Source: Candidatus Hecatellales archaeon
GTDB taxonomy: Archaea > Thermoproteota > Bathyarchaeia > Hecatellales > Hecatellaceae
Assembly (NCBI GenBank): GCA_003661965.1
Contig: QMXD01000002.1
Location: forward strand, 2,377 to 66,376
Length of the DNA stretch: 64,000 nt
Direction: 5' to 3'
Part shown: positions 9,717-47,090 of the stretch, piece by piece
Layout: every line of letters starts with the position of its first letter
Position numbering within the stretch: position 1 is the stretch's first letter
Program-made: the position numbers and the translations under genes
Notes under the pieces: generated by a model
Told to the model about the DNA's origin: nothing
Databases searched by the model: none
The model's input: only the letters and a program-made list of their open reading frames with translations

Positions 9717-9756
9717 AAAACATGTAATGCAGTGCAATGCACTGTAATGCACACCC
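9717..9756 (+). repeat. Copy 1 of a conserved ~38-bp intergenic element (AAAACATGTAATGCAGTGCAATGCACTGTAATGCACACCC)
   Basis: Near-identical to the minus-strand copy at 47054..47090 and ~80% identical to 26711..26749. It contains the near-palindrome CAGTGCA-A-TGCACTG flanked by TAATGCA direct repeats. It lies 59 bp upstream of the DUF72 start. Confidence 0.85.
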
Positions 9757-9814
9757 TCTAAACCAAAAATCTTTAGTTTTATTCCCCACAAATCTAGAAT
9801 CTAGAGGGTTAAAC

Positions 9815-10732
9815 ATGCCCATAAAAATTGGGTGTTGTGGTTTTCCAGTTTCAAAAACAAAGTATTATAGGGAGCTTCCACTTGTCGAGATTAACTCAAC
9901 CTTCTACAATTATCCAAAACAGTCTATCCTGTTAAAATGGAGAAGGGAGGCTCCTGAAAACTTTGAGTTTACCGTTAAAGCCCATCAGGACATAAGCCAT
10001 ACACATAGGTTTAACCCAAACAACGAATGTATTAAAGCCTTAAACCTAATGGTTGAAATATGTAAAACCCTAAACTCAAAAATACTTTTAATCCAAACAC
10101 CAGCCTCCTTCAAACCTGAAGAATCAAACCTTAAAAAAGTTAAAGAATTTTTTGGGAAAATAGGTAAACATAAAATTTTTTGGGTTTGGGAAACAAGAGG
10201 AGATGAATGGTTTAAACCAGAAACCAAAAAAACCCTAAAAAAAATTTTTGATGAGTATGGGATAATCCACTGTACAGACCCTTTTATCAGCCAACCAGCC
10301 AGAGTTGGAGAAATAGCATATTTTAGGCTTCATGGTTTAGGTAAACGCCTATACTACTACCAGTATTCTGATGATGAACTTAAAAAACTGCTAGAAACGG
10401 TTAAAAAGTTTAACAAAAAACGTGAGGTTTATGTCCTATTTAACAATTTAACAATGTTTACCGATGCCTTAAGGTTTAAAAGTCTTGTTGAAAAAGGGGA
10501 ACTCCCAAGCCTAACAGGATGTTTCGGCTTAGAATCCTTTAAAAAGGTTGTTGAAAAAACAAAATTTCCAACCTCAAAACCAAAACTTCTTAAGATGCAT
10601 GGGTGGAAGCTTTTCGACCTTAAACATGGGAAACAAATATTGGTGGAATCTGTTTTAGAGCAGATACCCACAAAAACCTACAATAGTCTTGATGAGCTTC
10701 TTAGTGAGGCTAAAAAAGTTTTGGGAGGTTAA
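9815..10732 (+). CDS. DUF72 (UPF0759/YecE-like) family protein
   Basis: MPIKIGCCGFPVSKTKYY...EINSTFYNYP...W...PENFEFTVKAHQDISH matches the DUF72 signature. The track start at 9737 lies inside the repeat element and is rejected. An ATG is present at 9815. Confidence 0.6.
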   Translation: MPIKIGCCGFPVSKTKYYRELPLVEINSTFYNYPKQSILLKWRREAPENFEFTVKAHQDISHTHRFNPNNECIKALNLMVEICKTLNSKILLIQTPASFKPEESNLKKVKEFFGKIGKHKIFWVWETRGDEWFKPETKKTLKKIFDEYGIIHCTDPFISQPARVGEIAYFRLHGLGKRLYYYQYSDDELKKLLETVKKFNKKREVYVLFNNLTMFTDALRFKSLVEKGELPSLTGCFGLESFKKVVEKTKFPTSKPKLLKMHGWKLFDLKHGKQILVESVLEQIPTKTYNSLDELLSEAKKVLGG

Positions 10733-10968
10733 GCTGAAATTAAGGTTACAGTCCTAATAATTCCTGGAATCTTACGCATCATCGTCACAATTTCATCCAA
10801 CTCTTTAAGTGTTGGTGTTTCAAGTCTTGCAACAACATCATACTCCCCATAAACAGTTTTAGCCTCAGTAACACCCTTAATCTTTTCAAGAGCTGTTTTT
10901 ACCTCAGACTCCTTACCAATCTCGGTAACTATTAAAACATAGATTACCACTGGCAAACCAAACACCAC
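10729..10968 (-). CDS. Stand-alone Lrp/AsnC ligand-binding (RAM) domain protein
   Basis: 79 aa with a beta-alpha-beta-beta-alpha-beta pattern (VIYVLIVTEIGKESEVKTALEKIKGVTEAKTVYGEYDVVARLETPTLKELDEIV) typical of AsnC C-terminal domains. Confidence 0.6.
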   Translation of the reverse strand: MVFGLPVVIYVLIVTEIGKESEVKTALEKIKGVTEAKTVYGEYDVVARLETPTLKELDEIVTMMRKIPGIIRTVTLISA

Positions 10969-10982
10969 TAACGCTAACTTAA

Positions 10983-12215
10983 ATGTTTATGTCTGTTTTA
11001 AATTTTACTACAATAAAAAGTTTTTTAAAGCAAAACCTAGCAGAAAAGTTTAAATCTAAAATTTTCTTCTTCAAAAGAAGGGCTTCACCTTTTCCAGTAG
11101 GTAACCTTAAACCAGAAAAAAAGGCTGTTTTAGCCTTAGCAGACGGAACAACTATTGTTGGTTATGGTTTTGGGGCTACTGGTAAAACCTCTGGCGAGGT
11201 TGTTTTTAACACAGGTATGGTTGGCTATGTTGAATCTATAACAGACCCCTCCTACAATGGTCAAATTCTGGTTCAAACCTACCCACTCATAGGTAATTAT
11301 GGGGTTTGCCCAGAACATTTTGAGTCTGGCGGTCCCAAAATAAGGGGGTATGTGGTTAGGGAGCTTTGTGTTGAACCCAGCCATTGGACCTCAAAAAAAA
11401 CCTTGGATGAGTGGCTTAAAGAAAACGGTGTTCCAGCCATTTACGGTGTTGATACAAGAATGCTTACAAAAAAGCTTAGGATTTTTGGGGTTATGCTTGG
11501 TGTTCTCCACGTTTATCCTCCCGGGGAGGAGCCTAACCTAGAGGAGATTAAAGAGGAGATTAAATATGTTCCAGACCCAAACCAGACAGATTTGGCTAGA
11601 GAGGTTTCAACAAGAAAAATTGTTAGATATGAAACCGACGGAAAATATAGGGTTGTGTTGGTGGATTGTGGAGTAAAAAAAAGTATAATAAGAAACCTTT
11701 TAGCTAGAAAGGTTAACGTTGTTCAGGTTCCAATAGACACCACAACAGATAAAATTCTTTCAGAAAAACCTGACGGAATAGTTTTATCAAACGGTCCTGG
11801 AAACCCAAAAATGGTTCCATACCTCATAAAAACGGTTAAACAGCTATTAGAGGTTAAAATCCCTGTTTTTGGTATATGTTTAGGCTGTCAGGTTTTGGCT
11901 TTAGCTCTTGGAGGAGACACCTATAAGCTAAAGTTTGGTCATAGGGGTCAAAACCATCCAGCAATAGACCTAAAAACCCAAAGATGCTATATTACAAGCC
12001 AAAACCATGGTTACGCTATAAATCCAGACTCCCTACCAGAAGATGTTGAAGTAACCTTTCTAAACGCAAACGATAAAACTGTTGAAGGTATAAAACATAA
12101 AAAACTACCTTTTACCGCTGTCCAATTTCATCCTGAGGCTGCTCCAGGACCTGTAGATACAGACTTTCTTTTTGACCTGTTTTTAAGGGATATGGAAAAG
12201 TTTAGGGGAGGTTAA
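10983..12215 (+). CDS. carA: Carbamoyl-phosphate synthase small (glutamine amidotransferase) subunit
   Basis: CarA N-domain (AVLALADGTTIVGYGFGATG...GEVVFNTGMVGY), GATase with GICLGCQ and HGY..N, and the FHPEA motif. The first ~40 codons translate an AT-rich promoter-like stretch, so the true start is uncertain. Confidence 0.85.
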   Translation: MFMSVLNFTTIKSFLKQNLAEKFKSKIFFFKRRASPFPVGNLKPEKKAVLALADGTTIVGYGFGATGKTSGEVVFNTGMVGYVESITDPSYNGQILVQTYPLIGNYGVCPEHFESGGPKIRGYVVRELCVEPSHWTSKKTLDEWLKENGVPAIYGVDTRMLTKKLRIFGVMLGVLHVYPPGEEPNLEEIKEEIKYVPDPNQTDLAREVSTRKIVRYETDGKYRVVLVDCGVKKSIIRNLLARKVNVVQVPIDTTTDKILSEKPDGIVLSNGPGNPKMVPYLIKTVKQLLEVKIPVFGICLGCQVLALALGGDTYKLKFGHRGQNHPAIDLKTQRCYITSQNHGYAINPDSLPEDVEVTFLNANDKTVEGIKHKKLPFTAVQFHPEAAPGPVDTDFLFDLFLRDMEKFRGG

Positions 12216-12220
12216 AGGGT

Positions 12221-15200
12221 TTGGCTTCCCGTAGGGAAACTGTTAAAAGGGTTTTGGTTGTTGGGAGTGGTGGTATAGTTATCGGTCAGGCTGCAGAATT
12301 TGATTATAGCGGCTCCCAAGCCTTAAAAGCCTTACGTGAAGAGGGAATAGAAACAATACTTGTAAACCCTAACGTTGCAACAATTCAAACAAGTTTAAGG
12401 ATGGCTGACAAGGTTTACCTTGAACCTGCTGTTCCAAACATTGTTGCTGAAATTATTAGAAAGGAAAAACCTGATGGGATTCTGCTTAGCTTTGGAGGGC
12501 AAACAGCGCTTAATGTTGGGGTTGAGCTTAAACGTATGGGTGTTTTGGAAAGTGAGGATGTTAAGGTTCTTGGAACATCAATAGAGACTATAGAGGCTAC
12601 AGAGGATAGAGACCTTTTCCGTAAAGCAATGTTGGAGGCGAACGTTCCAATCCCCCCAAGCCAAGCAGCCTACTCGCTTACAGAGTCTCTTAGGATAGCT
12701 GAAGAAATAGGTTATCCTGTGATTGTTAGGGTTGCGTATACGCTTGGTGGTGGAGGTTCAGGTGTAGCCTATAATGAGGCTGAGTTAAGAGACCTTGTTC
12801 CAAAAGCTTTAGAGCTTAGTCCAGCCCATCAAGTCCTTATTGAAAAGTATCTTGGAAACTGGAAGGAGATAGAGTATGAGGTTATGCGTGACTCTGCTGA
12901 CAACACGATTACCGTTGCTGCACTAGAAAACTTTGACCCTCTAGGTATCCACACAGGAGACAGTATTGTTGTCGCTCCAACCCAAACCCTAACAAACCGT
13001 GAATACCATATGCTAAGAAGTGCTTCTCTAAGAGTTATCCGTAGCCTAAAGGTTGTTGGTGAATGTAACATCCAGTTTGGGCTTGACCCCCAAAGCGAAA
13101 ACTATGTTGTTATTGAGGTTAATGCAAGAATGTCTAGGTCTAGTGCTTTAGCCTCAAAAGCTACGGGGTATCCCTTAGCCTACATAGCTGCTAAACTTGC
13201 TTTAGGTTATACTCTTCCAGAGCTTATAAACAAGGTTACAGGTGTAACAACAGCATGTTTTGAGCCTGCGTTAGACTATGTTGTTGTAAAGATTCCAAGA
13301 TGGGATTTTCAAAAGTTTCCAGGACCTGTAGACCCCCATCTTGGTTCTCAAATGAAGTCTGTTGGGGAGGTTATGGCTATTGCACGTTCTTTTGAGGAGG
13401 CTCTTCAAAAAGCAATTAGATGTCTTGAGGTTGGGAAGATTGGGCTTGTGGCAAACCCAAACCATCAATATGAGTTTTTGTCTGATGATAGGGTTAAGGA
13501 GCTGCTTAAAAATCCTACGGATGAAAGAATATTTATTATTGCTGAGGCTATTAGAAGAGGTTTTTCCATCCAAGAGATTAATAGGCTTACAGGGATTGAC
13601 TGCTGGTTTCTTTACAAGATAAGAAACATAGTTGAAATGGAAAAGGTTTTAAGAAATCTGTCTTTGGAGGATAAGGATGCCTCGGAAATCATACGTAAAG
13701 CAAAAATGCTTGGTTTTTCTGATAGGCAGATAGCCCTATGTATGGGTTTGGATGAAGATGAGGTTAGAGCTTTCAGGAAAAAGTTTGGAATAAAACCCTC
13801 ATTCAAAATTATTGATACTATGGCTGCTGAGTGGGCTTCAAAAACAAACTACTGTTATTTAACCTACGGTGACACCGAGGATGATGTTGATTTTTCACCC
13901 AAAAAGAAGGTTCTTATTCTTGGTGCAGGATGTATAAGGATAGGTAGCAGTGTAGAATTTGACTATTGTACAATGAATACTGCTTGGTCTTTAAAGGAGG
14001 AAGGAATAGATGAAATAATAGTTTTAAATAACAACCCTGAAACAGTTTCAACAGACTATGATATGTCGGATAAGCTTTACTTTGAAGAGATAACTCTTGA
14101 AAGGGTTCTTGACATAGTTGAAGCTGAAAATCCTTTAGGTGTTGTGGTTAACGTTGGAGGTCAAACACCAAACAACCTAGCCTTACCACTAAAAAAGCAT
14201 GGAGTTAAACTTTTAGGAACCCTAGCTGAAAACATTGATAGGGCTGAGGATAGGGCAAAGTTTAGCTCTCTTCTTGACAAGCTTAAGATTCCCCAGCCAC
14301 CATGGAACAATGTAACAAGCCTAGAGTCAGCTAAAGAGTTTGCTAGGAAGGTTGGTTATCCTGTCCTAGTTAGACCCTCCTATGTTCTTTCAGGAGCGGC
14401 TATGAGGGTTGCAACAACAGAAAAAGAGCTTCTTGAATATATAGAGAGGGCTACAAAAATTTCTCCAGAGCATCCTGTTGTTATAAGTAAGTTTATTGAG
14501 GATGCTAAGGAGGTTGAGGTTGATGCTGTTTCTGATGGTGAGGATGTTTTGATAGGTGCCATAATTGAGCATGTTGAGCTTGCTGGAACCCATAGTGGAG
14601 ATGCAACAATGATTATCCCGCCACAAACCCTAACCAAGGAGGAAATAGAAAAAATTGAAGACTATACGGTAAAAATAGCTAAAGAAATTCAGGTTATAGG
14701 ACCTTTTAACATCCAGTTTCTTGTTAAAAACGGTGAAGTTTACATTATTGAGCTTAACCTTAGAGCAAGCCGAAGTATGCCCTACACAAGCAAATGTACA
14801 GGTGTTCCCTTAATCTATATTGGTGGAAAAGTTATGATGGGAAAACGAATCAGAGAGTTTAAGGATAGCATTATAAACAGTAGGAGTATAAGCCACTTTG
14901 GTGTTAAAACCCCAACATTTTCCTTCCTTAGACTTAAGGGTGCAGACCCACTTTTAGGTGTAGAAATGACTTCAACAGGTGAGGTTGCATGTTTAGACTA
15001 TACGGTTGAGGGTGCAATGTTAAAAGCTTTTTTGGCTTCAGGGTTAAACTTCCCAGACCAGAAAAAATTCATCCTTATCACCGTTAGAAAAGAGGATAGA
15101 AAAACAGCCCTTGAAATTGCTAAAGATATTCAGGCTATGGGTTACCCGATACTTGCCACAGGTGGAACAGCAAAATTCCTTCAAGAACATGGAATAGAGG

Positions 15201-15487
15201 TTCTTGGGCTTGGTAAAATAAGTGATGGTATTAGAAGCATACCAAAAATGATTTCAGCTGGAGATATTGGACTTGTTATAAACACACCAACACCAACCAA
15301 AGAAAAAACGATAGACGACAGCTACATCATCAGACGTACAGCTGTAGAGTTTTCTGTTCCTGTTTTAACAAGGATAGAGACAAGTAAAGCCTTTATTAGA
15401 GCCTTAAAAGAGAAAGGTAGAACAGCCTTCCAAGTAAAATCTTTAAACGAGTATCATAAGGAGAATCCTTGGCTAAAATACATCTAA
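12221..15487 (+). CDS. carB: Carbamoyl-phosphate synthase large subunit
   Basis: 1088 aa with two ATP-grasp halves (VLVVGSGGIVIGQAAEFDYSGSQA...; KVLILGAGCIRIGSSVEFDYC) and a C-terminal MGS-like domain. The start is a TTG at 12221, 5 bp after the carA stop. Confidence 0.95.
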   Translation: MASRRETVKRVLVVGSGGIVIGQAAEFDYSGSQALKALREEGIETILVNPNVATIQTSLRMADKVYLEPAVPNIVAEIIRKEKPDGILLSFGGQTALNVGVELKRMGVLESEDVKVLGTSIETIEATEDRDLFRKAMLEANVPIPPSQAAYSLTESLRIAEEIGYPVIVRVAYTLGGGGSGVAYNEAELRDLVPKALELSPAHQVLIEKYLGNWKEIEYEVMRDSADNTITVAALENFDPLGIHTGDSIVVAPTQTLTNREYHMLRSASLRVIRSLKVVGECNIQFGLDPQSENYVVIEVNARMSRSSALASKATGYPLAYIAAKLALGYTLPELINKVTGVTTACFEPALDYVVVKIPRWDFQKFPGPVDPHLGSQMKSVGEVMAIARSFEEALQKAIRCLEVGKIGLVANPNHQYEFLSDDRVKELLKNPTDERIFIIAEAIRRGFSIQEINRLTGIDCWFLYKIRNIVEMEKVLRNLSLEDKDASEIIRKAKMLGFSDRQIALCMGLDEDEVRAFRKKFGIKPSFKIIDTMAAEWASKTNYCYLTYGDTEDDVDFSPKKKVLILGAGCIRIGSSVEFDYCTMNTAWSLKEEGIDEIIVLNNNPETVSTDYDMSDKLYFEEITLERVLDIVEAENPLGVVVNVGGQTPNNLALPLKKHGVKLLGTLAENIDRAEDRAKFSSLLDKLKIPQPPWNNVTSLESAKEFARKVGYPVLVRPSYVLSGAAMRVATTEKELLEYIERATKISPEHPVVISKFIEDAKEVEVDAVSDGEDVLIGAIIEHVELAGTHSGDATMIIPPQTLTKEEIEKIEDYTVKIAKEIQVIGPFNIQFLVKNGEVYIIELNLRASRSMPYTSKCTGVPLIYIGGKVMMGKRIREFKDSIINSRSISHFGVKTPTFSFLRLKGADPLLGVEMTSTGEVACLDYTVEGAMLKAFLASGLNFPDQKKFILITVRKEDRKTALEIAKDIQAMGYPILATGGTAKFLQEHGIEVLGLGKISDGIRSIPKMISAGDIGLVINTPTPTKEKTIDDSYIIRRTAVEFSVPVLTRIETSKAFIRALKEKGRTAFQVKSLNEYHKENPWLKYI

Positions 15488-15506
15488 AATAAGCAAAAAT
15501 TTTTGT

Positions 15507-16115: not shown

Positions 16116-16120
16116 GACTT

Positions 16121-25734: not shown

Positions 25735-26720
25735 TGGTGGAAAATCTGATTGAAGACAAAAAACTTTTAAAATCAAAGTTTCTTGGAGCTTTGGTTGGAA
25801 CCGCTGTAGGTGACGCTTTAGGTATGCCTTTTGAAGGCTACGACCCAAAATATATCCAGTCAAGGTATGGAGAAGTTAAAGATATGTTTCCCGGTAAACT
25901 TCCAGCAGGCTCCTATACCGATGATACTGAAATGATGATTGGGGTTGCGGAGTCGCTTATTGAAAATTGTGGGTTTAACGGTGAACACATGGCTAAAACA
26001 TTCATAAAAAATTTTAATTCAAGTAGAGGTTATGGTTTTGGTGTTCAAATAGTTTTAAAGCTAATATCAGAAGGGGAATCATGGGAAAACGCTGCTGAAA
26101 ATCTTTTTGGCGGTATAGGCTCCTATGGGAATGGGGCTGCTATGAGGATTGCACCAGTAAGCATATTCTACTACGACAATTTTGATGAGCTTATAAAAAT
26201 AGCTGTTAAAACCGCAAAAATAACCCATACCCATCCACTTGGGGTTGAAGGTGCTGTTCTTCAAGCCTACGCTATAGCTTTAGCCTTAAACCAGCATCCA
26301 CTAAAAAACCTAAACATAGAAAACTTTTTACAATCCCTCCAAAACCTTGCCAAAAGCGAAACCTACAAAAACAAAATCAAAAAAATAAAAATTTTACTCA
26401 ACAAAAAAACAAGCAAATGGGAAGTTATTTTTTTGCTTGGAAACGGAATAGAAGCCTTTAACTCCGTCCCAACAGCAATCTACTCCTTCCTAGCCAACCA
26501 TAAAAACTTTGAGGATGCCGTAACCTACGCAGTAAACCTAGGTGTAGACACAGACACCATAGGAGCCATGACAGGAGCAATAAGCGGAGCCTACCACGGA
26601 TTTGAAGCCATACCAAAAAAATGGCTAAACAAACTTGAAAACCTAAACCACATAAAAAACCTAGCCGAAAAAATATGGGAAATCAAAACAACCCAAACAC
26701 AGCCTAAACCAAACATATAA
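25734..26720 (+). CDS. ADP-ribosylglycohydrolase family protein (DraG/ARH-like)
   Basis: LGALVGTAVGDALGMPFEG, SYTDDTEMM and LGVDTDTIGAMTGAISGAYHG are the ARH metal-binding motifs. Its ATG overlaps the upstream stop (TAATG). Confidence 0.75.
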   Translation: MVENLIEDKKLLKSKFLGALVGTAVGDALGMPFEGYDPKYIQSRYGEVKDMFPGKLPAGSYTDDTEMMIGVAESLIENCGFNGEHMAKTFIKNFNSSRGYGFGVQIVLKLISEGESWENAAENLFGGIGSYGNGAAMRIAPVSIFYYDNFDELIKIAVKTAKITHTHPLGVEGAVLQAYAIALALNQHPLKNLNIENFLQSLQNLAKSETYKNKIKKIKILLNKKTSKWEVIFLLGNGIEAFNSVPTAIYSFLANHKNFEDAVTYAVNLGVDTDTIGAMTGAISGAYHGFEAIPKKWLNKLENLNHIKNLAEKIWEIKTTQTQPKPNI

Positions 26721-26749
26721 TGCACTACACCGCAGTGTAATGCACAGCC
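26711..26749 (+). repeat. Copy 2 of the conserved intergenic element (AAACATATAATGCACTACACCGCAGTGTAATGCACAGCC)
   Basis: ~32/39 identical to copy 1. It lies 81 bp upstream of the hdrC2 start and is followed by a 7-bp inverted repeat TTATCCT-N10-AGGATAA (26750..26773). Confidence 0.75.
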
Positions 26750-26829
26750 TTATCCTAGCCTCCCACAGGATAAAACATCAAACCAACAAAAGTTTTAAGT
26801 TTTGGCTTCAGAAATTTAAAATATAAAAT

Positions 26830-27255
26830 TTGTTTGGTTTGGCTGATGTGGAAAGGTGTGTTTTGGTGGTTTTAGAGGACCGAAAACTCCTAGAGAAAAT
26901 TAAGGAGCTTAGCGGTATAGATCTTAGTGTTTGTATGCAGTGTGGTATATGTTCTGGAAGCTGTCCTGCAGTCGACCAGATGGATATAACACCAAGAATG
27001 ATGGTTAGACTTATCCAGCTTGGACGTGAAAAAGAGGTTTTAGATTCTAAGGCTATGTGGATTTGTCTTTCATGTTTTACCTGTTATGCTCGTTGTCCAC
27101 GTGAAATAGATTTTGCTAAGCTTGGTGAAGCCTTAAGACAGGTAAGACTTAGAAAAGGTTTAGACTATATCCGTATCTCAGAAATCCCTGAAGAAGAGTT
27201 TAAAAAGCTTCCTCAAATAGCCCTTGTAAGCTGTTTCCGTAAATTCACCTCCTAA
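26830..27255 (+). CDS. hdrC: HdrC-like 4Fe-4S ferredoxin (second copy)
   Basis: CMQCGICSGSCP and CLSCFTCYARCP motifs. The start is a TTG. Confidence 0.75.
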   Translation: MFGLADVERCVLVVLEDRKLLEKIKELSGIDLSVCMQCGICSGSCPAVDQMDITPRMMVRLIQLGREKEVLDSKAMWICLSCFTCYARCPREIDFAKLGEALRQVRLRKGLDYIRISEIPEEEFKKLPQIALVSCFRKFTS

Positions 27256-27258
27256 AGG

Positions 27259-28164
27259 GTGAAAACTTTGAAAATTCCATATTATCCAGGTTGCACCCTA
27301 AAAACCTCAGCCAAAAACCTTGAGGTTTCAGCCTTAGAGTCTGCTAAGGTTTTAGGTGTAGAGCTTGTTGAACTTCCAAGATGGAATTGTTGTGGTGCTG
27401 TTTTTTCTATGGCTACCGACGACCTAATACATCAGCTTGCCCCGATAAGAAACCTTATAAGAGTTCAGGAGATGAATGAGAAGGGTATTGTTGAAAACGA
27501 GAATCGTGTTGTGGTTTTATGTTCAATGTGTTTTAACACCCTAAAAAGAAGTAACATGTTTGTAAAGGAGGATAAGGAGAGACTAGAAAAAATTAACAAT
27601 TTTTTGTCTGATACCGAGGAGCCATATCAGGGAAACATTGAGGTTATCCACTTTTTGGAGCTTTTAAAAAACGATATAGGATTTGATAGGGTGGCTGAAA
27701 AGGTAAAAAAACCTTTAAAAAACCTTAAGATTGCACCGTATTATGGCTGTCTACTTTTAAGACCTGAGGAAATCGCCATAGACAACCCTCAATCACCAAA
27801 AGTTCTTGAGAATCTTCTTGAGGCTTTAGGTGCTACTGTTGTTGACACCCAGTTTAAAACTAGGTGTTGTGGAAGCTATCAGACGGTTAACCGTAAAGAG
27901 CTTGTTGCTGAACTTGCATATGACATCCTTAACCAAGTAAAGATTAGTGGTGCTGATTGTGTTGTTACAAGCTGTCCTCTTTGCATGTTTAATCTTGACA
28001 CTAGACAGGAGGAGGTTAAAAAGGCTCACCCAGAATTTAAAACAATTCCAGTTTTCTACTTTACCCAGCTTATGGCTTTAGCCTTTGATTTAGGAGAAAG
28101 CTTTTATAGGTTTGATTTAAACTATGTGAATCCGAAACCGTTACTATCTGAAAAAATCTTTTAA
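27259..28164 (+). CDS. hdrB: HdrB-like CCG-domain protein (second copy)
   Basis: YPGCTL...NCCGAVFS...; RCCGSYQ; SCPLCMFNLD. The start is GTG at 27259, 4 bp after the hdrC2 stop. Confidence 0.8.
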   Translation: MKTLKIPYYPGCTLKTSAKNLEVSALESAKVLGVELVELPRWNCCGAVFSMATDDLIHQLAPIRNLIRVQEMNEKGIVENENRVVVLCSMCFNTLKRSNMFVKEDKERLEKINNFLSDTEEPYQGNIEVIHFLELLKNDIGFDRVAEKVKKPLKNLKIAPYYGCLLLRPEEIAIDNPQSPKVLENLLEALGATVVDTQFKTRCCGSYQTVNRKELVAELAYDILNQVKISGADCVVTSCPLCMFNLDTRQEEVKKAHPEFKTIPVFYFTQLMALAFDLGESFYRFDLNYVNPKPLLSEKIF

Positions 28165-28215
28165 AGACCTAGAAAATGTTAAGGTTAGTTTGGAAATAGC
28201 CTTTTATGTGTTAGG

Positions 28216-29013
28216 ATGGGTGGGAAGTTGGTGGAAAAAACTCTGGAAGAAAAAACCTCAGAAAGGTTCTTGGATATTATGGAGAGAATAAAAGAGTCAA
28301 ACAAGTCTGTCACCACTGGTATTGATGAGAAGGAGATTAAACATTGGGTAACAATCTACATTATGGGTAAAGCTTACAAGGTTCCAGCAGACCTAACACT
28401 TATGCAGGCAATGGAGTTTGCTGGTTACAGGTTTATTAGGGGAGCAGGTTGTAGAGCAGGATTTTGTGGGGCATGCGCAACAATCTACAGGAAAAAGGGT
28501 GAATATAAGCTTAGAACAGCCTTAGCATGTCAAACAAGAGTTGAGGATGGAATGTATCTTGTACAGATACCTTTTGCTCCAGCAGAAAAACCTGTTTACA
28601 ACCTTGACAAGGAGGGTGGGGGTTTAGATGTTGTTTTTAAACATTTTCCAGAGGTTGCTAGATGTGTCTCCTGTAACACATGCACCAAAGCATGCCCCCA
28701 AACCTTAGAAGTTATGGATTGTATTCAGGCAATTCTTCGTGGAGATTTTAAGTTTGCAGCTGAAAACTCCTTTGACTGTATTCAGTGTGGCTTATGTTCA
28801 ATTAGATGTCCAGCTGAAATAATTCATTATCACCTTTTCCAGATGGTTAGAAGAATTCATGGAAAGTTTGGTGTCCCCCCAGAACCAAACCTAGAAAAAA
28901 GAATTAAAGAGATAGAAGAGGGAAAGTTTAACGAAGAATTTGAAAAGCTCCTTAAACTCAGCCCAGAGGAGCTTAAAGAAATCTACAGGAAGAGAGAAAT
29001 AAAGCTTGACTAG
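28216..29013 (+). CDS. Succinate dehydrogenase/fumarate reductase iron-sulfur subunit-like protein (2Fe-2S plus two 4Fe-4S)
   Basis: 2Fe-2S segment CRAGFCGACA, 4Fe-4S CVSCNTCTKACP and CIQCGLCSIRCP. This is the SdhB/FrdB/TfrB N-domain architecture. Confidence 0.7.
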   Translation: MGGKLVEKTLEEKTSERFLDIMERIKESNKSVTTGIDEKEIKHWVTIYIMGKAYKVPADLTLMQAMEFAGYRFIRGAGCRAGFCGACATIYRKKGEYKLRTALACQTRVEDGMYLVQIPFAPAEKPVYNLDKEGGGLDVVFKHFPEVARCVSCNTCTKACPQTLEVMDCIQAILRGDFKFAAENSFDCIQCGLCSIRCPAEIIHYHLFQMVRRIHGKFGVPPEPNLEKRIKEIEEGKFNEEFEKLLKLSPEELKEIYRKREIKLD

Positions 29014-29033
29014 TCTTTTGGAGGTGAATAGTA

Positions 29034-30692
29034 ATGTCTGAACTAAAATTTATTGAAGGATACCCGGAATACATGTATAAGCTTATAGAAATTGTTCATG
29101 AGACAAGAAGCGCTAGACTAAAAGAAAAACCACGTTTTATGACTCTTGAGGAAAGAGAGGAAGTATTAAAAATACATCCAGACTATGCTCCTGGAGGTAA
29201 AAGAGAAATTAGGATTGGACCTAACAAGGGGGATGTAGCCCCAAACGAGGTTGTAGATCTGCTTGAAGCTTACCCCCTTATTAACCCAAACGAGATAGAC
29301 CTAAACAATGTTGACTATGAGCCTGACATACTTATAATAGGTGGAGGTTTAGCAGGCACAACAGCCGCCTTATGGGCTAACGATAACGGTATCCCTGCAG
29401 AAAATATTTTACTTGTTACAAAGCTTAGACATGGAGACTCTAACTCCGTTATGGCTCAGGGTGGAACTCAGGCTGCTGATAGACCTGACGACTCCCCAAT
29501 AATCCACTTTATCGATACGATGGGTGGAGGACATTTTGCTAATAAGCCTGATGTTGTTAGAGCTCTTGTTGAAGATGCTCCAAGCATTATTAAGTGGCTG
29601 GTTGAGCTTGGAGCGATGTTTGATAGGGATGAAAACGGATACTTCTTAGAGCTTTCTGGTGGAGGTGCTTCAAGAAGAAGAATGCATGCTGCTGGAGACT
29701 ATACAGGGCTTGAGGAGATGAGGGTTGTTAGAGATGAGTTTAGGAATAGGGGTATCCCATGTCTTGAGTTTAACCCTGCTATAGAGCTTCTTACGGATAA
29801 TGATGGAAAAGTTGTAGGTGCGGTTTTATGGAATATGGAAACAAGAGAGTATAAGATTGTTAAGGCTAAAGCAACAATACTTGCAACAGGAGGTTTTGGA
29901 AGACTCCATATTAGAGGTTTCCCAACAACAAACCATTATGGAGCCACGTGTGACGGTGTTGTTTTAGCCTACAGGGCTGGAGCAAAACTTAGAGATATGG
30001 ATACAGTCCAATACCATCCTACAGGTGCAGCCTACCCACAACAGATAATAGGTCTTCTTCTAACCGAAAAGTTAAGAACTGCTGGTGCTCAAGTTGTAAA
30101 CGTTGATGGTGAAGCTTTCGTTAACCCTCTTGAACCTAGGGATGTTGAAGCATCAGCAATCATAAGAGAATGCTACATAAGAAACAAGGGAATCACAACA
30201 CCAACAGGAATTAGAGGTGTATGGTTAGATATTCCAATGATAGACTTGGTTAGAGGTGAAGGCTCAATAAAAAAGCTTTTCCCAGGTATGGTTAGAATGT
30301 ATAACAGGTTTGGAATAAACATAACAAAAAATCCTGTGCTTGTTTTTCCAACACTCCACTACCAAAACGGTGGTGTTGAAACAGACCCCTACGGTCAAAC
30401 AAACGTTAAAGGGTTGTTTGTTGCTGGTGAAGTTTCCGGAGGAGTTCATGGGAAGAATAGGCTTATGGGAAACTCAACCCTAGACTGCTTGGTTTTTGGT
30501 AGGAGAGCAGGAATAACAGCTGCAAACTATGTTAAAAGCGGAGTAAAAATTGGTAAATTAACCCTAAACCATGTGGAAAAATATGTTAAAGAGCTTGAAA
30601 ACACTGGAATAAAAACGAGTAGAAGGTCTCCGATTCTCCTACCAGACTATAGGGGGAAGGCAGTTCTAGCCAGAATGATTGATGTCTTCTAG
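29034..30692 (+). CDS. Fumarate reductase/succinate dehydrogenase flavoprotein-like FAD-binding subunit with ~95-aa N-terminal extension
   Basis: ILIIGGGLAG (FAD Rossmann), RHGDSNSVMAQGG (His at the covalent-FAD position), HYQNGG and RLMGNSTLDCLVFGRRAG, which are SdhA/FrdA/NadB-family signatures. The N-terminal 95 aa precede the Rossmann motif and have no counterpart I recognise. Confidence 0.7.
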   Translation: MSELKFIEGYPEYMYKLIEIVHETRSARLKEKPRFMTLEEREEVLKIHPDYAPGGKREIRIGPNKGDVAPNEVVDLLEAYPLINPNEIDLNNVDYEPDILIIGGGLAGTTAALWANDNGIPAENILLVTKLRHGDSNSVMAQGGTQAADRPDDSPIIHFIDTMGGGHFANKPDVVRALVEDAPSIIKWLVELGAMFDRDENGYFLELSGGGASRRRMHAAGDYTGLEEMRVVRDEFRNRGIPCLEFNPAIELLTDNDGKVVGAVLWNMETREYKIVKAKATILATGGFGRLHIRGFPTTNHYGATCDGVVLAYRAGAKLRDMDTVQYHPTGAAYPQQIIGLLLTEKLRTAGAQVVNVDGEAFVNPLEPRDVEASAIIRECYIRNKGITTPTGIRGVWLDIPMIDLVRGEGSIKKLFPGMVRMYNRFGINITKNPVLVFPTLHYQNGGVETDPYGQTNVKGLFVAGEVSGGVHGKNRLMGNSTLDCLVFGRRAGITAANYVKSGVKIGKLTLNHVEKYVKELENTGIKTSRRSPILLPDYRGKAVLARMIDVF

Positions 30693-40284: not shown

Positions 40285-40287
40285 AAC

Positions 40288-41346: not shown

Positions 41347-41429
41347 TATTTAAGGAAGAGAGGCTAGTAAAAGTATTTTATTTCTCGTAAAGAAAACTAT
41401 TAAGAAGATAGGTTAAGGGTGGATGACCT

Positions 41430-42059
41430 ATGAAGATAATGATTCTTTCAGATTTTCATGGTGTGGCAAGGTTTGCAGAAAAAATGAGGGATTTAGCTGT
41501 TTCACAAAAGTTTGATTGTATAGTTGTTTGTGGAGACCTAACAGACCTTGGACCCGTCAAGGTTGCACGTCAAATAATAGGAACCCTATCAGAGTCAAAG
41601 CTTCCAGTTTTATACGTTCCTGGAAACATGGACCCTAGAAACCTTGTGGACGAGTTGGATTCGGGTTTCCATGTTCATGGTAGGGGGAAGATTATTGGTG
41701 ATGTTGGTTTTGTTGGTGCAGGCTCCTACAGTAACCTTAAGGGTTTGCTTGAGCAAGGATTAAAAAGTTTGGTTAAAACTCCTAGGTTTCTTGTTTTTGT
41801 AACCCATGTTCCACCAAAGGGGACTAAGGTTGATTTGGCTTGGGATGGTTCCCATATTGGAAGTTTGGAGGTTAGGGAGGCTGTTGAAAAGTATAAGCCA
41901 AACCTTGTTGTTTGCGGTCATGTTCATGAGGCTAGAGGTGTTGATAGGATAGGTGAATCTGTTGTTTGTAATCCCGGACCTGCCTACAACGGTTTTTATG
42001 CTGAGGTTTTTTTGGATGAAAAGGTTAAGGTTAAACTTTTAAGCCTTAAAACTGTTTAA
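41430..42059 (+). CDS. Metallophosphoesterase (calcineurin-like, YfcE/MJ0936-type)
   Basis: MKIMILSDFHG, CGDLTD, GNMD and CGHVHE are metallophosphatase motifs. At 209 aa it is too small for Mre11. Confidence 0.7.
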   Translation: MKIMILSDFHGVARFAEKMRDLAVSQKFDCIVVCGDLTDLGPVKVARQIIGTLSESKLPVLYVPGNMDPRNLVDELDSGFHVHGRGKIIGDVGFVGAGSYSNLKGLLEQGLKSLVKTPRFLVFVTHVPPKGTKVDLAWDGSHIGSLEVREAVEKYKPNLVVCGHVHEARGVDRIGESVVCNPGPAYNGFYAEVFLDEKVKVKLLSLKTV

Positions 42060-42222
42060 GGTTTTTGGTGGGTGTGGTTATGCTGTTGAATAGGATTAGG
42101 GTTACACCATAATCCAGCAGTTAGCCTTAGCCTATATAGGTGAACGTGTTTTAGGTTTACCAAAATCCTATTAGCCTAACCTAAGGTTACATTTTTAATT
42201 TAGAACTGTTTTTGAAATATTC

Positions 42223-43029
42223 ATGGAGTTGTTTTTTCTTGGAACTGGTGGTGGACGTTTCTCAATAATAACCCAAAAAAGAAGAACTGGTGGAATTAGA
42301 ATAATCCATGATAAGCTAAACATACATTTGGATCCTGGACCTGGAGCCCTAATTTATTCTCTTGAGAAAAACATGGATCCTAGAAAGATAAACATGGTTA
42401 TGGTTTCTCATTCACATCCAGACCATTATACTGATGCTGAAATTCTTATTGAGGCTATGACTGGTGGTGCCCTAAAAAAGTCTGGAACCCTTATTTGTGC
42501 AAAAAGTGTAACCGTTGGAAACGATGTTTGCGGTCCCTCAATATCAAAATACCATAAAAGTCTTCCAAGGGAGGTTGTTGAGTTGGAGGCTGGTGGAAAA
42601 TATGTTTCTGACGCTGTTAAAATTGAGGCTGTTAAATCTATCCATTATGACCCTGACACTATAGGGTTTAAGTTAACGTTTTCGGATGGAAAAACTTTGG
42701 GTTATACTTCGGATACAGAATATTTTGAGGGTTTGGGGGAAGCCTATAAAAACGTTGACCTTCTTGTTTTGTGTGTTATAAGACCTAGAGGTATGCCTCT
42801 TAAATGGCATATGTGTATTGATGATGCTGTTAAGGTTGTTGGGGAGGCTAAACCTAAAAAGGCTATTTTAACCCATTTTGGTATGAGGATGATTCTTAAC
42901 ACAACACCAGAGGTTGAAGCAAAATATGTTGAGGAGCAGACAGGTATACCTACTATTGCGGCTTATGATGGGATGGTGTTTAGGGTGAAGAGGGGGGAAA
43001 GAAAAAAAGATTTAACAAGCTTTCTTTAA
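42223..43029 (+). CDS. MBL-fold metallo-hydrolase
   Basis: LGTGGG...VMVSHSHPDHYTD...; 268 aa. Confidence 0.6.
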   Translation: MELFFLGTGGGRFSIITQKRRTGGIRIIHDKLNIHLDPGPGALIYSLEKNMDPRKINMVMVSHSHPDHYTDAEILIEAMTGGALKKSGTLICAKSVTVGNDVCGPSISKYHKSLPREVVELEAGGKYVSDAVKIEAVKSIHYDPDTIGFKLTFSDGKTLGYTSDTEYFEGLGEAYKNVDLLVLCVIRPRGMPLKWHMCIDDAVKVVGEAKPKKAILTHFGMRMILNTTPEVEAKYVEEQTGIPTIAAYDGMVFRVKRGERKKDLTSFL

Positions 43030-43086
43030 AATTTAAAACTTAAGTTTGGCTGACCTAAAGTTTTGTTGGAGGCTTAAGCTTTAACC

Positions 43087-45492
43087 TTGAAGTTTAAACC
43101 GAAAATCGCTGATAAAAGATGGGATCCGAAGAAGGAGCAGGAGATTTTTGAGGAGTGGTTAAACAAGAAAATTTATAGGGTTAACAAGTTTTCCGCAAAG
43201 CCAATCTACAGTATTGATACTCCTCCACCTTATGCTTCTGGTAGGTGGCATGTTGGTGGTGCAACTCATTATGCTCAGATAGATATGGTTGCAAGATATA
43301 AGCGTATGAAGGGTTATGAGGTTCTTTTTTCTTTTGGTATAGACCGAAACGGTTTACCTGTTGAGGTTGAGGTTGAAAAAAGGTATGGTATAACAGCCCA
43401 TAAAACTTCTAGGGAGAAGTTTATTAGGCTGTGTAAAGAGTTTCTTGACCAAGTTGAAAATGAGATTGTTAATACTGCTAAAAGGCTTGGGATGAGCTGT
43501 GACTTTGAAAACATGTATAGGACTGATAGCCCAGAATATAGGAGGATAACCCAAGAAACCTTTATCGAGCTTTGGAATAAAGGCTTAATATATTCTGATA
43601 ATAGACCTACAAACTGGTGTCCTGTCTGCCAAACAACTATTGCTGATGCTGAACTTGAATATGTGGCTGAGGAGACAAACCTATACTATATAAGGTTTAG
43701 GGTTGAGGAAGGTGGAGAAATAGTTATAGCAACAACAAGACCTGAGCTTTTATGCACATGTAGGATGGTTATCTATCATCCTGAAGATGAAAGGTATAAG
43801 CATCTTGAGGGGAAACATGCTGTTGTCCCTATCTACGGTCAAAAAGTTCCTATCAAAGCCAACAGTTATGCTAAACCAGGGTTTGGAACAGGAATAGCTA
43901 TGATATGTTCCTTTGGAGACTATACCGACATCAGAATTTTTAGGGAGTTAAACCTCAAACCCACGATTGCAATAACAAAGGATGGGACGATGAATGAGGT
44001 TGCAGGACCATATATGGGTTTAACCGTTAAGGAGGCTAGAGAAAAAATAGTTGAGGATTTGGAGAGGGATGGTTTACTTGTTAAAAAGGAAAAAATCAAG
44101 CATAACACTCCTGTTTGTTGGAGGTCTAAAAATCCTGTCGAATTTATTTTTATGGAGGAATATTATCTTAAACAGCTTCCATTTATTGAAAACCTAAGAA
44201 AGGTTATTGACCAGATAGAGTTTTATCCTCCAGAATCAAAACAGCTTTTGTTAAACTGGGTAAACTCTATTACTGTGGATTGGCCTATCTCAAGAAGAAG
44301 GTTTTATGGGACTGAAATCCCCATCTGGTATTGTGCTAAATGTGGAAAACCTTATCTTCCACCACCAGGACGATATTATCAGCCTTGGAGGGAAAAACCT
44401 CCAACCGAAAAATGTGAGTGTGGCTCTAAAGATTTTGTAGGTGAAACTAGAACCTTTGACACATGGATGGATTCAAGTATAAGCCAACTCTACATTTTGG
44501 GTTATAAGAGGGATAAAGAGTTTTTTGAGAAGGCTTTCCCATGTAGTTTAAGACCTCAAGGGATGGATATTGTTAGAACATGGTTATATTATTCTATTCT
44601 TAGAACCTACCAGCTTCTTTCAGCACCAGCCTTTAAACATGTAAGAATTTCAGGTATGGGTTTGGATGAGCATGGGGAGGCTATGCATAAGTCTAAAGGA
44701 AACATTATTTGGCCTGAACCATACCTAGAAAAGTATGGTGCTGATGCTTTTAGGCTTTGGGGTGCTTCTGAGGCTAAGCTAGGCTCAAACTATAGGTTTA
44801 GCACCGAAAGACTTGAGGGATGTTTCCGTTTTCTTACAAAGCTTTGGAATGTTTCAAGGTTTATTTCTTCTTTCCCTGTAGAGGTGGAAAACTATAGTTT
44901 AACTCCAACAGATAGGATGATTTTAAACGAGCTTTATAGGCTTGTTGTAGAATGTGAAAAGGGTTATGAGGAGATGGATTTTTTTATTCCAGCAAACGCC
45001 ATCAGAGAGTTTGTTTGGAATGTTTTTGCAGACCATTATGTTGAGGCTGTTAAGGCAAGAGCCTACAACACGGATGGAAGTTTTCATGGGGAGGAGCAGG
45101 CTGGAGCATGGTATACCCTCCACCTATGCCTTAAAACAATTCTTAAGCTTCTTGCTCCAATATGTCCATTTATAACTGAGGCTATTTGGAAACAAGTTTA
45201 CTCTGAAAACTCAATCCATCTGGAAAGTTTCCCGGAGCCTAAAAGGGAATGGTTAAGTGAGTATGGTGGGTTTATCAGCCAATTTATGGGGTTTAACTCT
45301 ACTGTTTGGAGGTATAAAAAGAGCAGGGGGATGGCTTTAAACCAAAAGCTTAGCCTTGTTTATGCACCAAAAGTTTTAGAGCCTTTTAGCCTAGACCTAA
45401 AAGCCATGCATAAAATTGAAAACCTATCCTTTGAAACACCAAAAGAAACCGAGAAACTTGAAAAATTTGGTGATGCGTATTTTAGGCTTTAG
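43087..45492 (+). CDS. valS: Class I aminoacyl-tRNA synthetase of the Val/Ile/Leu group, most likely valyl-tRNA synthetase
   Basis: PPPYASGRWHVGGATHY (HIGH-region), RYKRMKGYEVLF, WCPVCQTTIADAELEY, ATTRPELL, GTGIAMICSFGD (editing domain), MHKSKGN (KMSKS-region). 801 aa, TTG start. Confidence 0.65.
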   Translation: MKFKPKIADKRWDPKKEQEIFEEWLNKKIYRVNKFSAKPIYSIDTPPPYASGRWHVGGATHYAQIDMVARYKRMKGYEVLFSFGIDRNGLPVEVEVEKRYGITAHKTSREKFIRLCKEFLDQVENEIVNTAKRLGMSCDFENMYRTDSPEYRRITQETFIELWNKGLIYSDNRPTNWCPVCQTTIADAELEYVAEETNLYYIRFRVEEGGEIVIATTRPELLCTCRMVIYHPEDERYKHLEGKHAVVPIYGQKVPIKANSYAKPGFGTGIAMICSFGDYTDIRIFRELNLKPTIAITKDGTMNEVAGPYMGLTVKEAREKIVEDLERDGLLVKKEKIKHNTPVCWRSKNPVEFIFMEEYYLKQLPFIENLRKVIDQIEFYPPESKQLLLNWVNSITVDWPISRRRFYGTEIPIWYCAKCGKPYLPPPGRYYQPWREKPPTEKCECGSKDFVGETRTFDTWMDSSISQLYILGYKRDKEFFEKAFPCSLRPQGMDIVRTWLYYSILRTYQLLSAPAFKHVRISGMGLDEHGEAMHKSKGNIIWPEPYLEKYGADAFRLWGASEAKLGSNYRFSTERLEGCFRFLTKLWNVSRFISSFPVEVENYSLTPTDRMILNELYRLVVECEKGYEEMDFFIPANAIREFVWNVFADHYVEAVKARAYNTDGSFHGEEQAGAWYTLHLCLKTILKLLAPICPFITEAIWKQVYSENSIHLESFPEPKREWLSEYGGFISQFMGFNSTVWRYKKSRGMALNQKLSLVYAPKVLEPFSLDLKAMHKIENLSFETPKETEKLEKFGDAYFRL

Positions 45493-46984
45493 CTTTAAGT
45501 TGGAGAAGCCTGTTTAACCCGTTAATCATAGCTTCAACACTTGCAAGCACAATATCAGGTTTTGCTGCTCTTGCAGAAACAATTTTTCCATCAGCATCCT
45601 CAACCTTAACAACAACCTCAGCCACAGCATCTGAGCCTCCAGTTAAAGCTTCAAGCCTAAACTCTTTTAACCTAACGTTTATCAGTCTATCAGTAATTTT
45701 TTGAATAGCCTTTATTGCAGCATCAACAGGTCCAACACCAGTTTCTGAGGAGACATATTCTTTTCCCTCAAGAATTAGTTTAACTGAGGCTGTTGGAATT
45801 ACACCACTACCAGTAACAACTGTTAAATCTTTTAGGTCAACTATTTTTGGTTTTTCAACTGTTTTTCCGCAGATTAGGCTTGCTATGGATATTAGGTCTG
45901 TTGTTGTCACAAGCTTACCCTGGTCACCAAACTCTTTAACCTTTTGAAGAATTTGTTTAAGCTGTTCTTCTGTTGGTTTAAATCCAAGTTCTTCAATCTC
46001 CTTTTTTAAGCCATGGGTTCCAGCATGTTTTCCAGCCACCAAAATAGATTTTCTTCCAACAAGTTCTGGGGTTATAGGTTCATAGGTTAGAGGCATTTCA
46101 ACAACTCCACGGGTATGGATTCCAGACTCATGGGCAAAAGCATTTTCACCAACGATAGGCTTGTTTGGAGGAATCATTACACCTGTAAGCTTTGATACAA
46201 GTTTTGAGGTTTCATAGATAAGGTTTGTTTTAATCTTAACTTTTTCCCTGTAAAGCGAATATAAAGCCATAACAACCTCTTCAAGTGAAGCGTTTCCAGC
46301 TCTTTCCCCAATACCGTTAACGGTAACATGAACTTGGGTTGCTCCAGCCTCAACACCAGCAAGCGAGTTGGCAACAGCTAAACCAAAATCGTTGTGGCAG
46401 TGGACACTTATCGGAACCTTAACATGTTTTTTAATTTCACCTATAAGTAAACCCATCCTTTTAGGTGTCATAACACCAACAGTGTCAGGGACGTTTATCC
46501 TGTCAGCTCCAGCCTCAACGGCCCTCCTATAAGCCTCTACTAGAAAAGGGATTTCTGTTCTTGTAGCATCTTCAGCTGAAAACTCAACAGTTACTCCGTG
46601 GCTTTTAGTGTATTCAACCCATCTAGAAATTTTTTCTAGGACTTCTTCTTTGGTTAGGCGGAGTTTATGTTTAAGGTGGAGTTGTGAGGTTGCAATAAAA
46701 ACATGAACACTATCAACATCACATTTTAAGGCTGCATCTATATCTTCTTTTGTTGTTCTTGCTAAACCACAAATTTCAGCTTTAAGCCCCTCTTTTACAA
46801 TAAGCCTAACAGCTTCAACTTCCCCTTTTGAGGCTATAGGGAAACCTGCCTCAATAACATCAACCCCAAGCTTGTCAAGCTGTTTTGCTATTGTAAGTTT
46901 GTCTTCTGGTGTTAAAGCCACACCCGGAGTTTGTTCTCCATCCCTAAGGGTTGTGTCAAATATTCTAATGTGGTTTTGGCTCAT
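45482..46984 (-). CDS. leuA: 2-isopropylmalate synthase / (R)-citramalate synthase family (LeuA/CimA)
   Basis: IFDTTLRDGEQTPGVAL, HCHNDFGLAVANSLAGVEAGA, and a C-terminal LeuA regulatory domain. It is divergent from leuB. Confidence 0.8.
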   Translation of the reverse strand: MSQNHIRIFDTTLRDGEQTPGVALTPEDKLTIAKQLDKLGVDVIEAGFPIASKGEVEAVRLIVKEGLKAEICGLARTTKEDIDAALKCDVDSVHVFIATSQLHLKHKLRLTKEEVLEKISRWVEYTKSHGVTVEFSAEDATRTEIPFLVEAYRRAVEAGADRINVPDTVGVMTPKRMGLLIGEIKKHVKVPISVHCHNDFGLAVANSLAGVEAGATQVHVTVNGIGERAGNASLEEVVMALYSLYREKVKIKTNLIYETSKLVSKLTGVMIPPNKPIVGENAFAHESGIHTRGVVEMPLTYEPITPELVGRKSILVAGKHAGTHGLKKEIEELGFKPTEEQLKQILQKVKEFGDQGKLVTTTDLISIASLICGKTVEKPKIVDLKDLTVVTGSGVIPTASVKLILEGKEYVSSETGVGPVDAAIKAIQKITDRLINVRLKEFRLEALTGGSDAVAEVVVKVEDADGKIVSARAAKPDIVLASVEAMINGLNRLLQLKAKA

Positions 46985-47053
46985 GACGTATAGTTGATTG
47001 TTGGTTGTTGCTTAAATAGTTTTTATTTTACTCTGAATTTTTAGTGTTTTTGA

Positions 47054-47090
47054 GGGGCATTACACTGCATTGCACTGCATTACATGTTTT
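47054..47090 (-). repeat. Copy 3 of the conserved intergenic element, minus orientation
   Basis: The reverse complement AAAACATGTAATGCAGTGCAATGCAGTGTAATGCCCC matches copy 1 at ~33/34 positions over the core. It lies 70 bp upstream of the leuA start in the element's orientation. Confidence 0.85.

Follow-up and report, generated by a model that had tools for sequence, protein, structure and literature searches.

What is the short sequence element that recurs in the DNA of an uncultivated archaeon, and what would it do there? Three copies lie in a stretch of 64,000 nucleotides (the window; Candidatus Hecatellales archaeon, assembly GCA_003661965.1, contig QMXD01000002.1, positions 2,377 to 66,376 of the forward strand). 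The window has a GC content of 38%, and the homologues of its LeuA, DUF72 and HdrB-like proteins with the best matches are in Bathyarchaeia-type metagenome-assembled genomes. A sequence-only reading had taken the element for the binding site of a dimeric transcription factor, held at fixed spacing and orientation to start codons and unlike a mobile repeat. From its sequence the element can be classed as a lineage-specific short intergenic repeat or binding-site array. The reading that is tentatively favored, at a confidence somewhat short of probable, is a duplicated, lineage-specific array of sites for an oligomeric DNA-binding protein, which would lie upstream of the transcription factor B recognition element and TATA box (BRE/TATA) where a promoter is present.

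The copies in the window and the features that define them are as follows.

9714..9756, plus strand: copy 1 (nhmmer envelope, 48.8 bits)
26710..26750, plus strand: copy 2 (nhmmer envelope, 40.4 bits)
47052..47093, minus strand: copy 3 (nhmmer envelope 47093-47052, 48.0 bits)
9723-9732, 9733-9742 and 9743-9752, plus strand: decamer boxes of copy 1 (pattern search, Tandem Repeats Finder)
26750..26773, plus strand: inverted repeat TTATCCT-N10-AGGATAA (from the sequence; not counted as part of the element)

The pattern TAATGCA-N13-TAATGC with at most one mismatch matches the 64-kb window exactly three times against 0.07 matches expected, and none of 100 dinucleotide-preserving shuffles of the window gave three matches. 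The matches fall at the three places reported by the sequence-only reading and nowhere else. The element is about 40-45 bp long with the consensus TTTAAAACAT-R-TAATGCA-S-TGCAATGCA-S-TGTAATGCAC-A-SCCT, and copy 1 reads TTTAAAACA-TGTAATGCAG-TGCAATGCAC-TGTAATGCAC-ACCC. Each copy consists of three tandem decamers (TGTAATGCAs / TGCAATGCAs / TGTAATGCAC) or, equivalently, of six TGYA-N pentamers. Within each decamer lies a near-palindrome of 9 bp (TGYA-A-TGCA), and because the period is exactly 10 bp all three boxes point to the same side of the helix. The palindrome is perfect over its 9 bp in the middle box, TGCA-A-TGCA, and the outer boxes TGTA-A-TGCA have one base different; in copy 2 the middle box is degenerate (TACACCGCAG). 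The 10-bp phasing is seen independently by the pattern search and by Tandem Repeats Finder, which reports period 10 with 2.7-2.8 units in copies 1 and 3 (2.7 in copy 1), and also period 5 with 6.0 units in copy 1 as six ATGCA-type units. Exact TGYAATGCAS occurs in the window inside the elements only.

The element had been described as two TAATGCA direct repeats flanking a 15-bp palindrome. In copy 1 the palindrome CAGTGCA-A-TGCACTG is perfect, a single mismatch interrupts it in copy 3, and copy 2 has a degenerate form; the two direct repeats are present in general, except that the second one in copy 3 reads TAATGCC. The element is better described as three tandem decamers. The reported near-identity of copies 1 and 3 was reproduced (33/34 positions of the earlier core and 31/33 of the core used here). 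The inverted repeat noticed immediately after copy 2 is real; it is absent from the orthologous spacer in the sister species (L130).

Four further copies were found, two at orthologous sites in the sister species and two at new loci of the Joint Genome Institute (JGI) metagenome Ga0180301. Contig L124 holds the ortholog of copy 3, and L130 (9431-9469) holds the ortholog of copy 2. At both new loci, L096 and L115, the three boxes are exact and the flanks are those of the window copies; the surrounding genes are archaeal and the GC content is 38-39%. Copy 1 is also present, identical, in the ENA contig L135. A metagenome scan with the strict pattern matched at least 118 stretches, nearly all of them long decamer satellites, and among the matches listed the only true relatives are L096 and L115. 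The strict pattern had three matches in GTDB species representatives (the host genome is not among them), all chance matches in bacteria, and no match in viral contigs. About 7 kb added to the window through a look-up of terminal proteins contained no new copy.

The family is discrete. A hidden Markov model (HMM) of the seven copies was searched with nhmmer --max, without filters, against the window together with 17 archaeal loci related to it, a partly redundant set of about 290 kb. The known copies score 39-49 bits, no other element-strand match rises above 2.5 bits, and the intermediate matches of 8.6-15 bits are solely reverse-strand self-matches of known copies. Position weight matrix scans of the window and related loci found no degenerate copies either. 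Non-orthologous copies are identical at 26-32 of 33 positions, with 3 of 10 pairs at 30-32. Outside about -6 to +38 of the core, independent copies are no longer homologous, and the archaeal copies have the non-repeat flanks AAACAT on the left and CACAsCCT on the right in common. This similarity is too strong for independent evolution at each locus, so the copies descend from one another and the element has spread by copying. All copies are single, none paired, and their density is about one per 20-40 kb: 3 were counted over about 71 kb from the window species, and the 41-kb sister contig has 1.

Comparison of orthologous sites shows both conservation and turnover. At site 2 the element is present in the window species and the sister species (HdrB proteins 84% identical), with 24 of 28 core positions identical between L130 and the window. 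The spacer to the promoter (41 versus 56 bp) cannot be aligned, and the promoter itself is a second conserved block of about 85% identity. The site 2 orthologs share the middle-box variants TACACCGCA and TGCACTGCA in place of the consensus TGCAATGCA, and these shared deviations indicate vertical inheritance under constraint instead of gene conversion or homogenization. The 71-72% relatives L131 and L132 have no element at this site, and their intergenic regions are 66 and 25 bp. The sister species lacks the element at site 1, where its gene order is unchanged and its DUF72 protein is 83% identical; the intergenic region there is 78 bp versus 184 bp in the window. At site 3 the window and L124 hold about 77 bp containing the element, and L125, L138, L126 and L139 lack it through a ~77-bp indel with a few unrelated bases in its place. 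Of the three sister-species assemblies only one has the site 3 element, and neither of the 84% relatives (L126, L139) has it. The LeuA of L125 is identical to that of L124, yet the two differ by the ~77-bp indel; the LeuA of L138 falls in a separate cluster (at least 90% identity) and is also 92% identical to that of the window. The phylogenetic footprint is present at site 2, absent at site 1 and partial at site 3, and presence/absence polymorphism at orthologous sites was observed, with empty-site boundaries that are not clean. Both sister-species copies (L124:9899-9931, L130:9433-9465) share a box 3 change from TGTAAT to TGTCAT relative to all window-lineage copies. This change may reflect co-evolution with a binding protein, or chance; two sites lend it weak support.

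The genes and predicted promoters around the window copies are listed next.

9815..10732, plus strand: DUF72 gene, then a convergent RAM-domain gene at 10729-10968
9764..9782, plus strand: putative BRE/TATA of DUF72 (AAAAATCTTTAGTTTTATT), about 10 bp downstream of copy 1
26830..30692, plus strand: cluster of HdrC-like, HdrB-like (CCG), SdhB-like and SdhA-like genes, TTG start at 26830
26788..26799, plus strand: predicted BRE/TATA of the hdrC-like operon (AAAAGTTTTAAG), located 42 bp ahead of the TTG start, at a distance of 39 bp from copy 2
45482..46984, minus strand: leuA (2-isopropylmalate synthase)
47011..47024, minus strand: predicted BRE/TATA of leuA (AAAAACTATTTAAG), located 40 bp ahead of the ATG, at a distance of 29 bp from copy 3
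47177..48325, plus strand: leuB-type Iso_dh gene, divergent from leuA

The downstream genes were named correctly before as those of DUF72, an HdrC-like Fer4 protein and LeuA. Copy 1 separates two divergent genes, a 232-aa unknown gene on the minus strand, with pyrF behind it, and the DUF72 gene on the plus strand; the latter is monocistronic because the next gene (RAM-domain) is convergent. Copy 3 lies in the divergent intergenic region between leuA (minus) and leuB (plus). Copies 1 and 3 are intergenic, as had been said of all three, and copy 2 includes, in its first TAATGCA, the stop at 26720 of an upstream open reading frame (ORF) for ADP-ribosylglycohydrolase. No copy lies inside a coding region, in agreement with the sequence-only reading: all five independent loci are non-coding. 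The ADP-ribosylglycohydrolase ORF is about 12 codons longer in the window (26684-26720) than in the sister species; the ancestral stop AAACTAA (L130) reads CCCAAAC in the window, and the window stop is the TAA inside TAATGCA.

A promoter-like motif, AAA-N1-3-TTTTAAG (in a looser form AAA-N1-3-T(T/A)TT(T/A)A(G/A)), stands 34-43 bp before several start codons of the window, a position that points to very short 5' leaders in this archaeon. It precedes the starts at 650, 19539, 26830, 41430, 46984 (minus) and 53851 (minus). The BRE/TATA of DUF72 was placed by eye from this window promoter consensus and has no exact regular-expression match. The BRE/TATA of the hdrC-like operon is kept in L130, and that of leuA is conserved in all relatives examined, with or without the element. 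Copies 1, 2 and 3 are 58, 80 and 69 bp from the start codons; the predicted BRE/TATA follows them after gaps of about 10, 39 and 29 bp, and none of them overlies the core promoter. Four of the five independent loci contain a promoter, and there the element stands upstream of the predicted BRE/TATA. The fixed spacing claimed earlier does not hold, with promoter gaps of about 10, 39 and 29 bp in the window and about 10-56 bp across loci. The claim that each copy has the orientation of its downstream gene is uninformative for copies 1 and 3, because divergent regions satisfy either orientation, and it is reversed in L115. The upstream junction of the leuA BRE/TATA is a rearrangement hotspot (window 46985-47176; L124:8134-10000; L139:2263-6000): in the window it holds the ~77-bp segment with the element, in L124 a gene for an M24 peptidase together with a duplicated leuB 5' fragment of 48 codons, and in L139 an island of 3.7 kb that encodes an RHH_1 protein and an N6_N4 DNA methyltransferase.

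The near-palindromic boxes at one-turn spacing, together with the conservation of site 2, make a cooperative protein-binding array the most likely mechanism. One sequence-specific protein would bind the three-box array as several cooperating dimers, and copies of the module have arisen at new intergenic sites in both the window species and the sister species. Where it lies upstream of BRE/TATA (four of five loci, about 10-56 bp), the module would serve as an activator-type or architectural upstream site, and any effect of the bound protein on transcription would be exerted from there. Classical archaeal operators overlap the TATA box or the transcription start, and the element is too far upstream of either to be one. 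Ribbon-helix-helix and winged-helix oligomers are expected to bind short boxes arranged head-to-tail at about one helical turn, 2-5 per site, and tandem-box operators bound by cooperating dimers include the met-boxes of MetJ (8-bp palindromes), the tor-boxes of TorR (decamer direct repeats) and the parC iterons of ParR. The near-palindromic boxes of the element are likewise head-to-tail at about one turn. In contrast to these bacterial systems with known proteins, the element is archaeal, has a 10-bp period and 9-bp boxes, and is known from sequence alone.

A number of observations weigh against an array of protein-binding sites that regulates the adjacent genes. The neighbors have no common function (DUF72/pyrF, Hdr/Sdh-like, leuA/leuB, an MG2-domain protein, and a clustered regularly interspaced short palindromic repeat (CRISPR) array with L22). 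The L096 copy follows the degenerate last repeat of the CRISPR array at a distance of 22 bp and faces the 3' end of the convergent gene for ribosomal protein L22, so that no start codon is downstream. In L115 it lies between two minus-strand genes in the orientation opposite to both; the nearest start, of the MG2-domain gene, is about 120 bp away, and the gap to BRE/TATA is roughly 80 bp by eye. Spacings to BRE/TATA of about 10, 29, 39 and 56 bp give an inconsistent geometry, and the promoter spacing of the two site 2 orthologs differs by 15 bp, which is half a helical turn out of phase. The consistent position and orientation to promoters expected of a regulon are thus lacking, in that the gaps vary, the L115 copy is reversed and the L096 copy has no promoter. 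The element is dispensable, being missing at orthologous promoters of close relatives, and box 3 is degraded in L124 (TGTCATACAG). No candidate binding protein was identified; the sister species has the 51-aa RHH_1 gene found at 8000-8155 just as the window does, but no copy 1. The information content is also excessive: the five window-lineage sites carry about 43 bits (small-sample corrected), and 5-100 sites in a genome of 1.5-3 Mb need 15-20 bits, a comparison biased by the fact that two of the five sites were found via the strict pattern. The graded family of sites expected of a regulon operator is not seen, either in bits or in the HMM scores, which leave a gap between 2.5 and 39. High information without degenerate copies looks like a young repeat family and not a regulon.

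Two side observations concern contig L096. Its CRISPR array (5700-6251, minus strand) has seven 36-nt repeats CTTGCAATAAAAAATCCCAAAAGAGTGAATTGAAAG ending in ATTGAAAG and runs off the contig end, and the contig also encodes an MCM protein with a LAGLIDADG intein at 36-2849.

In its excess information, lack of degenerate copies, strain indels and promoterless copy, the element behaves as a young duplicated repeat, and this behavior makes a non-regulatory dispersed repeat a serious rival. The rival, which is possible if doubtful, holds that the element is a neutral or selfish short dispersed repeat, REP-like (repetitive extragenic palindromic) or a remnant of a mobile element, that has no regulatory role and would be copied by a trans-acting enzyme or ectopic recombination and tolerated where harmless. 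The 26-32/33 identity of non-orthologous copies and the strictly bimodal family without degenerate members are what such a repeat would show. So are the ~77-bp presence/absence indel even between assemblies with identical LeuA, the absence from relatives at 71-84% protein identity and the decay of box 3 in L124. The contexts of the five independent loci (two divergent, two tandem and one convergent) are as random intergenic placement gives. These near-identical non-orthologous copies, absences in close relatives and missing degenerate members also make doubtful the earlier statement that the element is not a mobile repeat.

The transposon hallmarks searched for were absent. No target-site duplications were found: flanking direct repeats are at most 5-8 bp (P = 0.11-0.99 versus shuffled flanks), with length and position inconsistent between copies. 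Nor are there terminal inverted repeats, the ends being direct with TGTAATGCA at both. Of the features that mark a miniature inverted-repeat transposable element (MITE), only the presence/absence polymorphism was found, and neither terminal inverted repeats nor target-site duplications. No transposase or gene like that of the REP-associated tyrosine transposase (RAYT) was seen in the window or flanking loci, and no RAYT gene in the ~290 kb of related loci. A genome with REP sequences has tens to hundreds of them, many arranged as inverted pairs, along with a RAYT transposase. REP sequences and bacterial interspersed mosaic elements (BIME), Correia elements of Neisseria and Sulfolobus SM MITEs resemble the element in their near-identical, intergenic, strain-polymorphic and lineage-specific copies. 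The element differs from them in its 40-45 bp and low density (3 in ~71 kb, 1 in 41 kb of sister contig), in having no terminal inverted repeat, target-site duplication or long stem-loop, and in the lack of any transposase or RAYT seen with it. The site 2 copy, conserved beside a randomized spacer, argues for purifying selection and against a purely selfish repeat.

The two lines of evidence could be combined in a bolder form of the protein-binding array, a miniature ~40-bp copy-and-paste cis-regulatory module that would spread among promoters and recruit leuA/leuB, the Hdr/Sdh-like operon and DUF72/pyrF into one regulon; this form is considered unlikely. Of the regulator-site interpretation with which the analysis began, the protein-binding site survives as the favored reading, and the fixed spacing and orientation, the regulon and the exclusion of mobility do not.

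It is distinctly unlikely that the element is the binding site of a chromosome-organizing or roadblock protein that acts in the manner of matS/MatP, parS/ParB or a transcription insulator and blocks read-through between units. In the window the palindromic boxes are indeed scattered, at intervals of about 17-20 kb, and the copies separate transcription units in all arrangements, including the CRISPR array end that faces the convergent L22 gene. Copy 2 and the L115 copy come just after the 3' ends of co-directional genes, and orientation and phase to promoters are not kept. The matS/MatP and parS/ParB sites are similarly palindromic, tens of kb apart and independent of gene orientation; theirs are conserved and may lie in genes, whereas the element is gained and lost and strictly non-coding. 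Chromosome-organizing sites are usually conserved across related species, but the element is missing in the sister species at site 1 and partly at site 3, and altogether in more distant relatives. No partition or condensin-loader gene was seen nearby, and five loci are too few to judge a chromosomal pattern.

A role as RNA is improbable. On this reading the central 7-8-bp hairpin (UGCAsUG-CAAUG-CAsUGUA) would function within a small RNA, at a 3' end or in a 5' leader. The predicted fold of copy 1 has -13.8 kcal/mol (z = -3.0), and the RNAalifold consensus is a helix of 8 pairs, one of them compensatory (CG:4, GC:2), with a G-U pair on the gene-sense strand in six of seven sequences, the pair being A-U in L130. 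The covariation is not significant, with 67 of 500 shuffles as good, and repeated TGCA palindromes fold anyway; the opposite strand of copy 2 folds as well or better (-16 kcal/mol). Copies 1 and 3 are upstream of conserved core promoters and so would not be transcribed from known promoters, and the orientation to flanking transcription differs between loci. Rfam searches of the window gave only tRNAs at the gathering score and chance-level matches near the elements at E<=10. Neither a covariance-model match nor significant covariation places the element in a structured RNA family.

Independent replication slippage, which would make the copies chance decamer microsatellites like the (GTGTAATGCA/GTGTGTTGCA)n arrays that account for nearly all of the 118 or more metagenome contigs matched by the strict pattern, is effectively refuted by the shared unit order and shared flanks: the satellites have tens to hundreds of units on low-coding, eukaryote-like contigs of different GC without the element flanks, but the archaeal copies all have exactly three units with the same distinct middle unit, and three copies stand against 0.07 expected by chance. 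The satellites (GTGTGTTGCA/GTGTAATGCA)n themselves reach about 100 units, nested in higher-order repeats of 120-250 bp (L006-L123, for example L044:1809-2788), and come from the sources Ga0105051-55, Ga0209491, Ga0335396/8, Ga0126342 and ERZ17385xx contigs.

Other candidates were considered, and most were rejected. The mini-ORF ATG-N15-TAA (MQCNAL*) in the element is an automatic result of the TAATG spacing and is lost in L130 and L124. The left flank TTTAAAA as a TATA box, a side idea that would make the element a portable promoter, is not conserved in copy 2, L115 and L130. Positioning of histones or nucleoid proteins by alternating W-rich and S-rich pentamers fails because bendability cannot explain the near-identity of the copies. 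Restriction avoidance does not touch TGCA, which has 199 copies in the window and is not avoided. Four other tetranucleotides of the window, all palindromic, are strongly depleted relative to second-order expectation (observed/expected: CGCG 0/5.4, GATC 14/135, GGCC 18/104, GTAC 15/83), a depletion typical of restriction avoidance.

In agreement with the sequence-only reading, no described motif resembling the element was found in the literature searched. Archaeal activator sites include those of Ptr2 in Methanocaldococcus and the TGM motif of TrmBL1/Tgr when it lies upstream of BRE/TATA. The sites of Tar (TK0271) in Thermococcus are reported as upstream activator sites of aromatic amino-acid genes (PMC6737238), and the EarA boxes as upstream activator sites as well (PMC5512572). 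The element resembles all four in its palindromic or repeated boxes upstream of BRE/TATA, and it resembles the Tar sites in that one copy precedes amino-acid biosynthesis genes (leuA/leuB). It differs from Ptr2, TGM, Tar and EarA sites in an unrelated sequence (judged from general knowledge and abstracts), in its far higher information without degenerate copies, and in that it is not conserved at orthologous promoters and has one copy without a downstream gene. By these analogies the element would work most like tandem-box operators, be sited like archaeal activators, and spread like REP/MITE repeats without their defining features.

Almost nothing is known of gene regulation and repeat dynamics in uncultivated Bathyarchaeia-type archaea, and the element is a local, lineage-specific feature of them, not a new principle. 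If it is a mere dispersed repeat, it marks very recent intergenic turnover between co-occurring sister populations and a route of copying 40 bp that leaves neither terminal inverted repeats nor target-site duplications. If the form that spreads among promoters as a cassette were true, it would amount to archaeal regulatory rewiring by a mobile binding-site cassette without known transposon hallmarks. If a protein binds the array, as in the favored reading, the element would provide a defined 30-bp bait for the regulator, and the natural leuA strains would provide promoters with the element (L124 type) and without it (L125 type).

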